7,702 nucleotides of DNA from a virus (taxonomy: Duplodnaviria > Heunggongvirae > Uroviricota > Caudoviricetes), in the IMG/VR virus record IMGVR_UViG_2698536535_000001, positions 1-7,702 of that record; one strand, written 5' to 3'. Of the stretch, positions 618 through 7,702 are shown one piece after another. Position numbers and translations under genes: made by a program. Each line of letters begins with the position of its first letter. Position 1 is the first letter of the stretch. The notes beneath the pieces were generated by a model. It saw only the letters and a list, made by a program, of their open reading frames with translations, searched no databases and was not told where the DNA came from.

Positions 618-1095
618 TTTAGTCCTTGCGGCATTACGTAAGCTCGGTGTGGCATCAAATGCCACGTTAACCGATGTCGAACCGCAGTCTATGGAAGACG
701 GCGTCAACGACCTTGAAATGATGATGGCTGAATGGCTTGGAGGTGATGCGTCACCTGGTATCAACGTTGGCTACATTTTCGCTGATGCAGATGTCGCTCC
801 GGATCCTGGCGATGAGCACGGTTTGTCAAATAACGCTATCAATGCCGTCATTTTCAACCTTGCCTGCCGCATTGCTCCAGATTATGCGCTGGAAGCGTCT
901 GCAAAACTTATAACCACTGCCAGATACGGGAAAGAGCGACTCGTCAAACTGTCTGCAATGGACAGAGCAAAAGCCGCTAAATGTAAGTCCGGTTATCCAA
1001 ACCGTATGCCTGTTGGTAGCGGTAACCAGTTGGCGAAGTGGAACGGTTGGAATTACTTCCACCGAAAGGAACCTTGCGATAACGGGAGCGAATAA
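595..1095 (+). CDS. 4: Head-to-tail adaptor / tail accessory factor, P22 gp4-like (166 aa)
   Basis: ATG at 595, stop TAA at 1093-1095. The N-terminus [47 protein letters not shown] closely matches my recollection of P22 gp4, and the length matches. The listed ORF 502-1095 is this frame extended upstream to an earlier ATG. Confidence 0.9.
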
Positions 1096-2514
1096 ATGCC
1101 GATTCAGCAACTTCCGCTTATGAAAGGTGTCGGCAAAGACTTTCGAAACGCCGACTATATCGACTATCTGCCAGTGAATATGTTGGCTACACCCAAAGAA
1201 ATCCTTAACAGCAGCGGATATCTTCGCTCATTCCCGGGCATTGCCAAACGTTCTGATGTGAACGGTGTATCGCGCGGAGTCGAGTACAACATGGCGCAGA
1301 GTGCTGTTTATCGCGTGTGTGGTGGCAAGCTCTACAAAGGGGAAAGTGAAGTCGGTGACGTCGCCGGAAGTAGTCGTGTATCAATGGCGCATGGTCGGAC
1401 ATCACAGGCGGTAGGCGTTAACGGGAAACTGGTCGAGTATCGCTATGATGGCACGGTTAAAACCGTCTCAAACTGGCCTACAGACAGCGGATTCACGCAG
1501 TATGAGTTAGGCTCAGTCCGCGACATTACGCGATTACGTGGGCGTTATGCGTGGTCAAAAGACGGCACCGATTCATGGTTTATCACTGACCTTGAAGACG
1601 AATCGCATCCTGACCGCTACAGCGCACAATATCGTGCCGAGTCTCAGCCGGACGGCATCATCGGTATCGGAACATGGCGAGACTTCATCGTCTGCTTTGG
1701 TTCATCGACGATTGAATATTTCTCCCTGACAGGCGCAACTACCGTTGGTGCTGCTTTGTATGTCGCGCAGCCATCACTGATGGTGCAAAAAGGCATCGCC
1801 GGAACTTACTGCAAAACGCCGTTTGCTGATTCCTATGCTTTCATCAGCAATCCGGCAACAGGTGCGCCGTCTGTGTATATCATCGGCTCCGGGCAGGTGT
1901 CACCAATCGCCAGCGCGAGCATTGAGAAAATCCTCCGCTCCTACACTGCTGATGAACTGGCTGATGGCGTGATGGAATCGCTGCGATTTGATGCGCATGA
2001 GTTGCTGATTATCCACCTTCCGCGCCATGTTCTAGTATACGACGCATCTTCAAGTGCCAATGGTCCGCAATGGTGTGTGCTGAAAACAGGCCTGTATGAC
2101 GATGTGTACCGCGCTATCGACTTCATTTACGAAGGCAATCAGATAACGTGCGGCGATAAGCTTGAATCGATGACAGGAAAATTGCAGTTCGATATCAGCA
2201 GCCAGTACGACAAGCAACAGGAACACCTGCTGTTTACTCCGTTGTTCAAAGCGGATAACGCCAGAGTTTTCGACCTTGAAGTTGAATCGTCAACTGGAGT
2301 TGCGCAGTACGCCGACCGCCTGTTCCTCTCTGCAACCACTGACGGCATAAATTATGGTCGTGAGCAGATGATTGAGCAGAATGAACCGTTCGTTTACGAC
2401 AAACGCGTTTTGTGGAAGCGAGTTGGGCGCATCAGGAAAAACATTGGCTTCAAATTGCGCGTTATCACGAAGTCACCTGTCACTCTGTCTGGTGCTCAGA
2501 TAAGGATTGAGTAA
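1096..2514 (+). CDS. 10: Tail hub protein, P22 gp10-like (472 aa)
   Basis: ATG at 1096 directly after the gp4-like stop, with GGGAG at 1084-1088. Length 472 aa equals P22 gp10; N-terminus [16 protein letters not shown] and C-terminus ...[14 protein letters not shown] match recalled gp10; position between adaptor and needle genes. Confidence 0.92.
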
Positions 2515-3362
2515 TGGCGGATTCTAATCTCAATGTGCCGGTAATCATTCAGGCTACACGGCTCGACACATCAGTCCTTCCACGCAATATCTTCTCGCAG
2601 TCGTATCTGCTTTACGTTATCGCACAGGGCACTGATGTTGGTAACGTGGCTAACAAGGCCAACGAGGCCGGACAGGGCGCTTATGATGCACAGGTCAGGA
2701 ACGATGAGCAGGATGTGATTCTCGCTGACCATGAGCAGCGAATTTCTGCTGCGGAAGCAACGCTTGTTAATCATGAGGAGCGAATCAGCCAGGCAGAATC
2801 AACTCTTCAGGAACATGAAACACGAATAGCTCAGAATGAAAGCGATATTGCGTCGCTTGATACCAGAGTTCAGTCGCTGGAATCGCAGGTTTCAGACCAT
2901 GAAACGCGCATCGATGCTCTGGAGTATGCCACTACTCGCAAGAAGTCAGAGGTTGTTTACTCTGGCGTATCTGTAACCATCCCGACAGCGCCGACAAACC
3001 TTGTTAGCCTGCTGAAAACGCTCACGCCGTCATCCGGCACGTTGGCACCATTCTTCGACACCGTTAACAACAAGATGGTTGTGTTCAACGAGAACAAAAC
3101 CTTGTTCTTCAAGCTGTCGATTGTCGGGACGTGGCCCAGTGGAACCGCCAACAGGTCAATGCAACTAACATTTTCCGGTTCTGTTCCTGACACACTGGTA
3201 AGCAGTCGCAACTCGGCGACAACGACCGATAACATCCTGTTAGCTACGTTTTTCAGCGTGGATAAAGACGGCTTTCTTGCCACAAATGGCAGTACGTTAA
3301 CCATCCAGTCAAATGGTGCGGCGTTTATTGCCACAACCATCAAGATAATCGCGGAGCAGTGA
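2514..3362 (+). CDS. 26: Tail needle (cell-envelope-penetrating plug), P22 gp26 family, 282 aa, with a C-terminal knob-type domain
   Basis: ATG at 2514 overlaps the gp10-like stop (TAATG); AGGA at 2503-2506. The N-terminal ~70 aa ([18 protein letters not shown]...[13 protein letters not shown]...[11 protein letters not shown]) match the recalled gp26 hub-binding domain. A coiled-coil repeat region follows, then a ~135 aa C-terminal domain where I recall P22 gp26 being shorter (233 aa) with a different tip; the 282 aa length matches what I recall for the Sf6-type needle. Confidence 0.88.
2727..2936 (+). repeat. Five imperfect tandem 42-nt (14-codon, two-heptad) repeats encoding the needle coiled coil
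   Basis: Protein units [14 protein letters not shown] / [14 protein letters not shown] / [14 protein letters not shown] / [14 protein letters not shown] / [14 protein letters not shown]. The DNA periodicity is imperfect; the conserved core catgag-agcgaat recurs. Confidence 0.6.
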
Positions 3363-3817
3363 TGATTCAGTTCAAACCAACGCGAAACATCGACCTGATC
3401 GAAGCAGTCGGAAATCACCCTGACATTATTGCCGGGAGCAACAACGGTGATGGATACGACTACAAACCTGATTGCCGTTACTTTGAGGTGAACGTGCACG
3501 GACAGTTCGGCGGCATTGTTTACTATCAGGAGATTCAGCCGCTAACCTTTGATTGCCACGCCATGTACCTGCCAGAGATTCGCGGCTTCAGCAAGGAAAT
3601 CGGTCTGGCGTTCTGGCGATACATTCTGACTAACACCACCGTTCATTGCGTCACATCGTTCGCTGCACGCAAATTCCGCCACGGGCAGATGTACTGCGCA
3701 ATGATTGGCCTTAAGCGTGTAGGAACTATCAAGAAATACTTCAAAGGCGTGGATGACGTGACGTTTTACAGCGCCACACGTGAAGAACTAATCGACTTCC
3801 TGAATAACGGGAGATAG
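3362..3817 (+). CDS. P22 gp14-like small protein (about 151 aa), function poorly defined
   Basis: ATG at 3362 overlaps the needle stop (TGATG); GGAG at 3353-3356. An in-frame GTG at 3359 is an alternative start. Stop TAG at 3815-3817. Assigned by synteny only (between needle and gp7-like genes); I do not recognise the sequence. Confidence 0.7.
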   Translation: MIQFKPTRNIDLIEAVGNHPDIIAGSNNGDGYDYKPDCRYFEVNVHGQFGGIVYYQEIQPLTFDCHAMYLPEIRGFSKEIGLAFWRYILTNTTVHCVTSFAARKFRHGQMYCAMIGLKRVGTIKKYFKGVDDVTFYSATREELIDFLNNGR

Positions 3818-3819
3818 CC

Positions 3820-4512
3820 ATGTTATATGCATTTAAGCTGGGCAGAAAACTGCGCGGCGAGGAACCTTATTGCCCTGAAAAAGGCGGGAAAGGTGGTAGC
3901 TCTGATAAAAGCGCAAAGTATGCCGCAGAAGCTCAGAAGTATGCAGCAGACCTGCAAAATCAGCAGTGGCAGACGATCATGAAAAACCTTGCTCCGTTCA
4001 CGCCTCTTGCGGAGCAGTATGTTAACCAGCTTCAGAACCTTTCCAGTTTAGAAGGTCAGGGGCAGGCACTTAATCAGTATTACAACTCTCAGCAGTATAA
4101 AGACCTTGCAGGTCAGGCTCGTTACCAGAGTCTTGCTGCTGCGGAGGCTACGGGAGGACTTGGTTCGACAGCCACAAGCAATCAACTGGCTACGATCGCG
4201 CCGACTCTCGGTCAGTCTTGGTTATCAAACCAGATGAGCAATTACAACAATCTGGCAAACGTTGGGCTTGGTGCTCTGCAAGGTCAGGCAAACGCCGGGC
4301 AGACGTACGCCAACAACATGAGCAGCATTGCACAGCAAAGCGCAGCTCTTGCCGCTGCTAATGCCAACAAACCATCAAGTCTTCAGACAGCAATTAGTGG
4401 CGGAACGTCTGGTGCGATTGCCGGTGCAGGTCTTGCCAGCCTTTTGGGAACATCAACACCTTGGGGCGCTGGCATTGGTGCTGGTATCGGATTGCTTGGC
4501 TCGTTGTTTTAA
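3820..4512 (+). CDS. 7: Ejection (injection) protein, P22 gp7-like (230 aa)
   Basis: ATG at 3820 with GGGAG at 3808-3812. Length is close to P22 gp7 (229 aa as I recall). Basic N-terminal leader, Q/N/A-rich middle, Gly/Ala-rich hydrophobic C-terminus. Position matches the 14-7-20-16 order. Confidence 0.82.
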   Translation: MLYAFKLGRKLRGEEPYCPEKGGKGGSSDKSAKYAAEAQKYAADLQNQQWQTIMKNLAPFTPLAEQYVNQLQNLSSLEGQGQALNQYYNSQQYKDLAGQARYQSLAAAEATGGLGSTATSNQLATIAPTLGQSWLSNQMSNYNNLANVGLGALQGQANAGQTYANNMSSIAQQSAALAAANANKPSSLQTAISGGTSGAIAGAGLASLLGTSTPWGAGIGAGIGLLGSLF

Positions 4513-4521
4513 GGGGTAATC

Positions 4522-5817
4522 ATGGCTACTTGGCAAGGATCAAATGGCGGATTGTTAGCTGGTATCGGCGGCGTCAACTCAAACGCTCCGAGCGTAAATG
4601 ACATCGGCAATACGCTTCAGTTTATCAGGCAGAACAATGATATTGAGCGTTCAGGCGCTAACAATGTTGGGCTGACTGCTTTGCAAGGCCTTTCAGGTAT
4701 TGCGGGGGTGTTTCAGCAGGAAAAGCAGGCTCAGCGGCAGAAAGAATTTCAGCAGGCATACGCTAATGCTTATGCGTCTGGTGATCGCGGTGCTTTGCGT
4801 CAGTTGGCTACTCAATATCCAGACCAGATTGAATCCGTTCGTAAAGGCATGGGATTCATTGATGAAGAGCAGCGTAATTCTATCGGCACCTTAGCGGCTG
4901 GCGCACGCCTTGCATCATCGTCTCCAGAAGCAATGCAATCATGGCTGCAAAACAACGCCAAGGAACTGACTCGCGTCGGTGTTGACCCTAATAACGTTGC
5001 TCAGATGTATCAGCAGAACCCTTCAGGATTTGGTGAGTTTGTTGATCACCTTGGGATGGCTGCTCTCGGTCCGATTGACTACTTCAATGTTCAGGACAAG
5101 ATGGCTGGTCGTGAGATTGACCGAGGCAGACTGGCAGAGACAATCCGCAGCAATCAGGCAGGAGAAGCTCTAACAGCTCGAGGTCAGGACATCCAGATAC
5201 GTGGACAGAACATCAGCGCACAGAATGCTGCTCTTTCCCGTGAAATACAAAGAGCAGAATTACAAGAAAAGGCTCTGGACAGACAGATAGCCAGAGAAAG
5301 CAATCAGTTAAAACTTGAAGAGCTAAAACAGAAACAGGCAGATGTTCGGCAAAAGGCTGACATAGCACGCGCTGACAGGCAGGCCGCCGCTCAGGGTGCA
5401 GTTGATACGTTCAGCACCGCGCTTGATTCTCTCAACGAGATAGAGCAAAGCCCCGGCCTTTCAAAAGCAGTAGGAATTCGCTCCGCGTTTCCGACAGTTC
5501 CTGGTTCTGATGCGGCTAACTTTGAAGCAAGGCTCGACACCTTTAAAGCTCAAACATTCCTTCCTATGGTGCAGTCCCTGAAGGGTATGGGCGCTCTTTC
5601 AGATGCTGAGGGTAAAAAACTATCCGATGCGGTTGGTGCCCTAAGTCCCAAAATGAGTGAAAAGGCTTTTCGTGACTCTATCGGAAAGATTAGAAATCAG
5701 CTTGAAAGCAAGTTGAGCACTGTTAAAAAACAGTTTGATTATCAGGAGCCGGTGCAGAATATGCCAGGGCAACAATCTACTACTGGCAGTAACTTTTCTT
5801 CACTATGGGGTGATTAA
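4522..5817 (+). CDS. 20: Ejection protein, P22 gp20-like (431 aa)
   Basis: ATG at 4522 with AAGGGG at 4511-4516. Glycine-rich N-terminus, central charged coiled-coil-like segment; lies between the gp7-like and gp16-like genes. Confidence 0.82.
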   Translation: MATWQGSNGGLLAGIGGVNSNAPSVNDIGNTLQFIRQNNDIERSGANNVGLTALQGLSGIAGVFQQEKQAQRQKEFQQAYANAYASGDRGALRQLATQYPDQIESVRKGMGFIDEEQRNSIGTLAAGARLASSSPEAMQSWLQNNAKELTRVGVDPNNVAQMYQQNPSGFGEFVDHLGMAALGPIDYFNVQDKMAGREIDRGRLAETIRSNQAGEALTARGQDIQIRGQNISAQNAALSREIQRAELQEKALDRQIARESNQLKLEELKQKQADVRQKADIARADRQAAAQGAVDTFSTALDSLNEIEQSPGLSKAVGIRSAFPTVPGSDAANFEARLDTFKAQTFLPMVQSLKGMGALSDAEGKKLSDAVGALSPKMSEKAFRDSIGKIRNQLESKLSTVKKQFDYQEPVQNMPGQQSTTGSNFSSLWGD

Positions 5818-7702
5818 TGGCTAAAGCATGGAAAGATGTTATCGCCTCTCCACAGTATCAGGCGTTAGCACCAGAACAAAAAGCGCAGGCTCAGGAGCAA
5901 TACTTCAATGAAGTCGTGGCCCCGCAAGCCGGAGAAAATGCAGAGCAGGCTAAGCAAGCTTTCTATGCTGCCTATCCATTGCCATCTGTGCAGCAAGTGG
6001 AGACACAGCAACCAGTAGCACAGCAACAACCACAGCAAAGTGGATTTATGTCTGATCTTGGCGAAGCAGTAAAAGAGACTGGTCGCGGACTGGTGCAGGC
6101 TGGCGTGAACGTGGCAAACATACCTGCATCAGTTGCAGATGCTGTAACAAGCGCGGCGGCTTGGGCTGGCGGTAAACTCGGAATTGGCGATGGGACATAT
6201 CACCCTGCGCCACGAGTAACAACGCAGGGATTAGAGCAGGACTTTGGCCTTCAGCAAGGCGCGCTGACTCCACAAACTACAGAGGGAAGGGTATTTGCTG
6301 AGGCATTGCCTTACCTCACTCCTGCTGGCATTGAGAGAGCGGCAACACAGGCACCAACACTCGCTGGTAGAATCGCTCAGGGTGCAACTCGCCTTCTCGC
6401 TGAAAACGCAGTCGGGTCACTTGCTGCAAATAGTGCGAAAGATGATGCGGAAGCACTCGCTACCGATTTAGGCGTTGGCGTTCTGGCTGGCGGCGCTATT
6501 AACGCTGCCGGACGTGGATTAGGCGCTGCTTATCGTGGCGTTCGTGGTGCTATTGCACCAGAAGCGCAGCAAGCTATCAGATTTGCAGAGCGTGAAGGAG
6601 TGCCTCTGCACACCACAGACCTGTTACAGCCTACTTCCCGCGTCGGAAAAATGGCGCAAACGACAGCAGAAAATATCCCCCTGGCTGGCACAAGCGGAAT
6701 GAGAGCAACGCAACAGGAAGCGAGAAGCCAGTTGGTTCAGAGATTTGCTGATAAATTCGGTGAGTATGATCCAGCGGTTGTTATTGACAGCCTTAAAGCG
6801 AAAACATCAGGAATTCGTCGCGCTGCAGGAAATCGACTGGAGCAGGTTCAGAATGCTATGGCGGGAATAAACATTCAGCCTGCAAGAGCAATTCAGCAGA
6901 TTGATACAGAAATATCTAACCTGCAGAAGCTTGGTAAGGTTGCTGATAACGAGACTATTTCAAAACTTCAGTCCTATCGTGATGAGCTTGTTCGCAATGC
7001 TGGTCCTGATGGTCCGGTAAATCTGGATTTGAAGCAATTAAGCGATCTGCGCAGCCAGTTCAGAATGGACGTGAAGGGGGAGCGACCAGTGTTACCAAAC
7101 CGTTCCGATGCTGCCATTCAGCGCGTTTACAAGGCAATGACCGACGATATCAATGGTGCCATTGGTCAGAATCTTGGCAACGATACTCTCCGTAAATATC
7201 AGCAGGCCAATGCCGTCTACGCTGACGAAGCGGCGAAACTAAAGAATACCAGGCTGAAGAATGTTCTCATGAAAGGCGACCTGACGCCGGAAGTTGTCAA
7301 CAACATGCTATTCAGCAAGAACAAATCGGAAATTAAGACTCTCTATAACTCAGTTGGTCGTGTTGGCAGGGCGCAAATGCGCAATGGCATCATTGGAAAG
7401 GCGATGGAGAAATCAGGTGGTTCCCCTGACCAGTTCCTTCGGCAGCTTAACATCCTGCAAAACCAGACTGGCATCACATTTAAAGGTCAGGAAGCCGCTT
7501 ATCTGAAAGGATTGAAAAACTACCTGCAATCCACGCAGCAGGCTGCAAAAGCGGCAGTAACAACACCCACAGGGCAGCAAACTATCCCGTTCATTATTGG
7601 GTATGGGACGGCAATGAACCCGGCGACAACTGGCGCAGCAGTAAGCTACGGACTTCTTACTCGCGCCTATGAGAGCGAGCCATTGAACCGCCCCGGGTTT
7701 CC
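5817..7702 (+). CDS. 16: Ejection protein, P22 gp16-like; 3' partial, continues beyond the window
   Basis: ATG at 5817 overlaps the gp20-like stop (TAATG). The frame stays open to the window end (at least 628 codons), which is why it is absent from the closed-ORF track. N-terminus MAKAWKDVIASPQYQALAPEQKAQAQEQYF matches recalled gp16. Confidence 0.85.
   Translation, partial: MAKAWKDVIASPQYQALAPEQKAQAQEQYFNEVVAPQAGENAEQAKQAFYAAYPLPSVQQVETQQPVAQQQPQQSGFMSDLGEAVKETGRGLVQAGVNVANIPASVADAVTSAAAWAGGKLGIGDGTYHPAPRVTTQGLEQDFGLQQGALTPQTTEGRVFAEALPYLTPAGIERAATQAPTLAGRIAQGATRLLAENAVGSLAANSAKDDAEALATDLGVGVLAGGAINAAGRGLGAAYRGVRGAIAPEAQQAIRFAEREGVPLHTTDLLQPTSRVGKMAQTTAENIPLAGTSGMRATQQEARSQLVQRFADKFGEYDPAVVIDSLKAKTSGIRRAAGNRLEQVQNAMAGINIQPARAIQQIDTEISNLQKLGKVADNETISKLQSYRDELVRNAGPDGPVNLDLKQLSDLRSQFRMDVKGERPVLPNRSDAAIQRVYKAMTDDINGAIGQNLGNDTLRKYQQANAVYADEAAKLKNTRLKNVLMKGDLTPEVVNNMLFSKNKSEIKTLYNSVGRVGRAQMRNGIIGKAMEKSGGSPDQFLRQLNILQNQTGITFKGQEAAYLKGLKNYLQSTQQAAKAAVTTPTGQQTIPFIIGYGTAMNPATTGAAVSYGLLTRAYESEPLNRPGF

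Follow-up and report, generated by a model that had tools for sequence, protein, structure and literature searches.

In P22-like phages the N-terminus of the trimeric tail needle plugs the hexameric tail hub (PMC9728967), and the needles differ in what they carry at their other end. In P22 and HK620 the needle is gp26 (2POH, 3C9I, 5BU5), a protein of 233 aa with its gene between those for gp10 and gp14; the HK620 needle has been assigned to the P22-type subtype A (PMC3741392). The Sf6 needle, gp9, has 282 aa and a three-domain layout, and its C-terminal part is a knob that in the published boundary begins at residue 140 (PMC3741392). The crystal structure of the Sf6 knob is 3RWN (Bhardwaj et al. 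2011, as cited in PMC9728967), and that of the HS1 prophage is 4K6B. Each forms a homotrimer with a TNF-like jellyroll fold built from seven antiparallel strands, and binds three L-glutamates and one phosphate (PMC3741392). Besides these two structures (3RWN, 4K6B), the domain has its own Pfam family and is included in the 2022 cryo-EM model of the Sf6 tail; what the knob does is weakly defined in the literature.

The window, by which we mean the whole stretch of 7,702 nucleotides analysed here, carries a needle gene among late genes of the P22 kind. The features to which we refer are these:

502-1095, ORF, P22 gp4 homologue (Pfam PF11650)
1096..2514, + strand, tail hub / head-closure protein plugged by the needle, homologue of P22 gp10 and Sf6 gp8 (Pfam PF11134 Phage_stabilise, 992 bits)
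2514..3362, + strand, tail needle gene, homologue of Sf6 gene 9 and P22 gene 26 (282-aa ORF plus stop)
2514..2720, + strand, N-terminal tail-hub-plugging domain, aa 1 to ~69, common to P22-type needles
2721..2930, + strand, trimeric coiled-coil shaft, aa ~70-139, with repeated 'HE-RI' heptad motifs read from the sequence
2931..3359, + strand, C-terminal knob domain, residues 140-282 (PDB 3RWN/4K6B and Pfam PF16532 matches)
3362..3817, + strand, P22 gp14 / Sf6 gp10 homologue, DUF2824 (Pfam PF11039, 178.7 bits)
3820-4512, ORF, P22 gp7 homologue (Pfam PF25688)
4522-5817, ORF, P22 gp20 homologue (Pfam PF16928)

This order is the standard one for P22-like phages and is collinear with Sf6 genes 8-9-10. 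As in the gp26 family, the needle gene sits between the gp10 homologue (upstream, PF11134) and the gp14 homologue (downstream, PF11039). It is joined to each by a one-base stop/start overlap, TAATG at the gp10/needle junction (2512-2516) and TGATG at the needle/gp14 junction (3360-3364), which suggests translational coupling. The ORF listing starts the gp14 homologue at a GTG at 3359; the start annotated in Sf6 is equivalent to the ATG at 3362. Downstream of the gp20 homologue, a frame that is open from 5817 up to the end of the window lies at the position of P22 gene 16, an assignment made by position only.

When the whole needle protein was searched against PDB sequences with phmmer, the highest similarity was to the knobs, that is, to the Sf6 'Gene 9 protein' (3RWN, E 7.1e-90) and to HS1 (4K6B, E 2.1e-89), in both cases over query residues 130-282. 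The P22 gp26 chains 4LIN, 4ZXQ, 2POH, 4ZKP and 3C9I gave E values of ~1e-43 to 1e-47 and covered only query residues 1-131 to 1-144, the 'DNA stabilization protein' chain 5BU5 matched only the N-terminal part of the query (E 4e-42), and the N-terminus matched 8EAP, which holds P22 gp26 residues 1-62 (E 1.7e-27). In this search no P22 or HK620 chain aligned past query residue 144-146. The plug domain and shaft are thus homologous to those of P22/HK620 gp26 (2POH, 3C9I, 5BU5; E ~1e-42 to 1e-44 over residues 1-131/144), and the P22-like N-terminal region proposed earlier was confirmed, with residues 1-144 aligning to P22 gp26 (2POH/3C9I/4ZKP, E about 1e-43 to 1e-44). The C-terminal part, in contrast, had no alignable counterpart in the needles of P22, HK620, IME10 or Dewey; the window needle does not end in a P22-type tip, the kind shared by P22, HK620 and epsilon34, since it has no homology to P22 gp26 residues ~141-233. 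The gp26 tip is accordingly an unrelated one, and it is not as short as had been supposed, because the 233-aa P22 protein extends ~90 aa beyond the shared region, compared with ~140 aa in the window needle. Pfam placed the protein in PF16532, 'Sf6-type phage tail needle knob' (Phage_tail_NK), with 388 bits against a gathering score of 27; the match runs over aa 108-282 and profile positions 1-175 of 175, and so takes in part of the shaft as well. The shaft also gave weak Pfam coiled-coil matches to Tropomyosin, XhlA and DUF7310.

The window needle equals Sf6 gp9 in length (282 aa), gene position and three-domain layout. After translation of both genes, 277 of the 282 residues were identical, the five substitutions being R92S, D100E, S113A, S270A and T272I; residues 1-60 are 100% identical. 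Only the last two changes fall in the knob, where 141 of 143 residues agree. At Sf6 position 270 the HS1 knob has Ala, as does the window, and T272I is the only knob difference between them (4K6B, PMC3741392). The residues that contact L-glutamate, E146, K200, S248, D250, L255 and K277 (Sf6 numbering), are all kept in the window needle, and so is the S231-R232-N233 triad, which includes phosphate contacts (both lists of residues from PMC3741392). The needle gene shares 97.5% DNA identity with that of Escherichia phage Louie and 96.7% with Sf6 gene 9. Taken together, we are highly confident that ORF 2514-3362 is a tail needle gene from a temperate phage or prophage of E. coli/Shigella that belongs to the Sf6-like group (P22-like, Lederbergvirus), and that residues 140-282 of its product are the known knob.

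The original prediction had singled out positions 2946-3359 as a long C-terminal domain rich in Ser, Thr and Asn, beta-rich, and of the knob-bearing type found in Sf6-like phages. These positions are exactly residues 145-282 and contain both quoted peptides (34 and 21 letters), Ser, Thr and Asn make up 34.8% of them, and the 3RWN/4K6B and PF16532 matches establish the knob type; the difference between a boundary at 145 and the published 140 is trivial. HK620 had been named beside Sf6 as a needle of the same type. Of the comparison proposed with these two, the Sf6 half held, and the HK620 half did not, as HK620 gp26 is a P22-type needle of 233 aa that aligns in the N-terminal part only. We also considered the Dewey gene annotated 'tail needle knob' as a divergent knob, and rejected it, its product being a 233-aa needle of the HK620/P22 type. 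Dewey_CDS0010 (Dewey record 1501-2202) is without a knob domain, and the public annotation is an error.

Because it is 98.6% identical to the crystallised proteins, we safely infer that the window knob would adopt the TNF-like jellyroll fold. A beta-rich domain had been predicted, consistent with the seven-strand jellyroll of the Sf6/HS1 knob (PMC3741392). AlphaFold2, run on the single sequence of residues 130-282, gave a model that was mostly beta strand but of low confidence (pLDDT 56.6), and for that reason it was set aside as independent evidence of the fold. In a Foldseek search with this model 3RWN/4K6B came top (TM 0.66, E ~1e-17), a ranking driven by sequence identity; the matches below them, to PRD1 P5, Eiger TNF and plant-virus jellyrolls, all had E > 0.03 and are only suggestive.

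The annotation of this protein in NCBI predates our analysis, and the Sf6-type needle knob of the window was in that sense already known. NCBI and UniRef list the exact 282-aa sequence under the name 'tail needle knob protein [Escherichia coli]'; it occurs on 8 contigs, the largest of 291 kb, and the 90%-identity cluster to which it belongs has 3620 members. The cluster also includes 'DUF2824 family' proteins of 153-159 aa (MEIKLIDNPV...), which are not needles; their presence looks like a clustering artefact or a fusion-bridged cluster in the database.

To locate the joints of the needle gene, we aligned it, with 300 nt on each side, with the corresponding regions of Sf6, Gally, HK620, IME10, Dewey and P22, and followed identity in 60-nt windows. 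Against HK620 and Dewey, DNA identity was 86-100% from gene 10 to ~2720 (codon ~70). From ~2720 through the shaft and tip, identity to the P22-type needles (HK620, Dewey, IME10, P22) dropped to noise, with 15-40% in 2780-3360, and it was back at 93-98% to HK620, IME10 and Dewey, with 93-97% for HK620 and Dewey, from the start of gene 14 at 3362. The block exchanged relative to P22-type needles is therefore shaft plus knob, and the break that separates the window needle from them lies N-terminal of the coiled coil. A different picture emerged against Gally, which has a knob needle of 317 aa: identity was 97-100% to ~2720, low in 2720-2915, where Gally has 105 additional nt (35 aa, five heptads), and 83-100% from ~2915 to the end. 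Only against this 317-aa type is a joint visible at the coil/knob boundary (~2915, codon ~134).

The needle thus consists of a plug domain, a coiled-coil shaft and a tip, three blocks that can each be exchanged, with joints at ~codon 70, ~codon 134 and the stop codon, so that the coil/knob boundary is only one among its joints. A module swap at that boundary had been proposed. The swap is real, but its placement was imprecise, since against P22-type needles the break falls at ~2720, upstream of the coiled coil, and the proposed position applies to the Gally comparison; one sole recombination joint at the coil/knob boundary is ruled out by the sliding DNA-identity analysis. The HS1 needle shows the same pattern, with an N-terminus 98% identical, a shaft 67% identical and one difference in the knob (PMC3741392). 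Like that of Gally, the HS1 coiled coil is 35 aa longer (HS1 numbering is Sf6 numbering plus 35), whereas the window shaft has the Sf6 length. Knob-type needles accordingly come with two shaft lengths, 282 aa in Sf6 and the window and 317 aa in Gally, JEP4, vB_EcoP-720R6 and HS1; the two forms differ by a divergent coiled coil and are near-identical in N-terminus and knob.

Another mosaic joint was observed at the boundary of genes 4 and 10. Window positions 1090-7684 share 96.5% DNA identity with Sf6, and the similarity starts only at 1090; upstream of ~1090 the coat end, the orf69-like ORF and gp4 are not Sf6-like. Positions 18-1090 (coat C-terminus, orf69-like ORF, gp4) resemble instead phages of the IME10, Dewey, Louie and CurroJimenez type. 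The window is therefore a hybrid, in which the end of an HK620/IME10-like head module is followed by an Sf6-like tail and ejection module. The upstream part also contains a perfect hexanucleotide tandem repeat, CAGAGC, at 508-543 (508-547 in the TRF row), with 6 full copies, where phage IME10 has 8. In the small ORF 315-617, which resembles P22 orf69, the repeat encodes (EP)n close to the C-terminus; in another frame it encodes (SQ)n within the gp4 ORF, when that ORF is taken in its long form from 502. Copy number varies in multiples that preserve both frames. The start at 502 is the one annotated in IME10. It is probably too far upstream, because the Pfam gp4 match and P22 gp4 itself both begin at the ATG at 595.

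Does the gene still belong to a working phage? In more than 100 E. coli genomes the Sf6-type needle gene is part of a several-gene P22-like remnant (PMC3741392), and of 5426 complete E. coli genomes we found 821 (15%) with knob DNA, annotated alike there; O26 and other STEC strains are numerous among them. The gene could thus sit in a decayed prophage remnant, no longer used and encoding a domain without current function in its genome. We regard this as decidedly unlikely here, because the late genes for gp4, gp10, needle, gp14, gp7 and gp20 are intact, tightly coupled and without frameshifts in the window, the gp16 frame is open, and the region is collinear with Sf6 at the identity given above. 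At 7.7 kb the window is too short to tell an inducible prophage from a remnant; it most likely derives from an Sf6-type E. coli prophage.

Of 50,697 phage records searched with the knob by tblastn, 291 matched. Eleven of them had at least 95% identity, all P22-like or close relatives, and 276 had less than 60% and were Vi01-like (Ackermannviridae) and T4-like myoviruses and phages of Klebsiella, Edwardsiella, Vibrio, Aeromonas and Dickeya. The homologues in non-P22-like phages match about 90-100% of the knob domain at 36-57% identity. They have other N-terminal parts or are nearly standalone, are not P22-like tail needles, and are mostly annotated as hypothetical. This distribution matches and extends the picture drawn in 2013, in which the knob would have been recently imported into P22-like phages.

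Codon 272 (3327-3329) encodes Ile in the window and Thr in Sf6, HS1, Gally and 12 of the 12 other full-length cluster members read. The Ile272 needle is thus a rare allele, found on the 8 contigs mentioned above; nearby position 270 is variable (A, S, E or P). T272I lies five residues from the glutamate-contact residue K277. That it changes ligand binding or knob stability, and thereby ejection kinetics, seems to us extremely improbable.

The best-supported reading of the needle, by analogy with its relatives, is that of a plug and membrane-contacting needle whose tip would tune ejection kinetics. The steps are drawn from established work on P22 gp26 and Sf6 gp9. Three needle chains would assemble into one needle, whose N-terminal ~60-70 residues would enter the channel of the tail hub (the gp10 homologue) and plug it, keeping the packaged DNA in the head. 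Residues ~70-139 would form the trimeric coiled-coil shaft, and the C-terminal 143 residues the homotrimeric TNF-like jellyroll knob, with three L-glutamates, one in every interface between subunits, and a phosphate bound at the distal tip. During infection the needle would touch the cell surface and then be lost, and the ejection proteins (gp7, gp20 and gp16 homologues) and the DNA would exit thereafter. The tip domain would tune the rate of DNA delivery and would not dictate host specificity. While the identity of the protein, its domains, the conservation of ligand contacts, the gene context and the mosaic joints are observed directly, we infer from the literature that the window needle would trimerise, bind glutamate, act as a plug and have this kinetic role.

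The knob had also been put forward as a candidate host-range determinant, that is, as a module for receptor binding or envelope recognition that is specific to the host and decides the species or strains that can be infected. Its fold does resemble the receptor-binding knobs of adenovirus and PRD1 P5 (PMC3741392), as echoed by the weak PRD1 P5 matches of our low-confidence model, and among P22-like phages the Sf6-type knob is confined to those of Escherichia/Shigella (PMC3741392), with which our searches agree. Such a role is nevertheless very unlikely. The chimeric needle swaps suggested in the original prediction were already published in 2013: Salmonella is infected efficiently by P22 phages that bear the HS1 or Sf6 knob, and in P22 the knob confers no host specificity (PMC3741392). 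Moreover, the mutations that expand the host range of Sf6 all map to the tailspike and none to the needle (PMC9400499), and knob sequences within P22-like phages vary by no more than 4.9% over many hosts whose O-antigens differ (PMC3741392), the opposite of what a diversifying receptor-binding domain would show.

The same low diversity suggests a recent arrival, and raises the question of whether the knob does anything beyond keeping the needle folded, as a stable trimerisation cap that came by horizontal transfer and is carried as a near-neutral passenger. Single and double mutants of the glutamate site were normal in both yield and K+ release, the P22 tip is non-essential in the laboratory (PMC3741392), and homologues occur at the C-termini of unrelated proteins in the 276 other phage records with less than 60% identity. 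However, several alterations of the needle tip slow K+ release during DNA delivery (PMC3741392), and the L-glutamate contacts are fully conserved, in the window as well as, reportedly, in distant knob homologues (PMC3741392), implying selection on a specific property. We therefore consider a passenger role unlikely, and favour the tip as a modulator of ejection kinetics. P22 remained viable with swapped knobs, with glutamate-site mutations and with tip deletions, and these experiments concern P22 on Salmonella rather than an Sf6-type phage on its native host; the authors note that a specific role of the knob in native Shigella/E. coli infection remains possible (PMC3741392).

The native role of the knob and of its bound L-glutamate is a recognised question for Sf6-type knobs generally, and is not specific to this sequence. 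What our analysis provides is the correct annotation of the window, and it raises no new question: the needle is a textbook component of Sf6-like phages, and exemplifies the mosaic evolution of needles among the P22-like phages.
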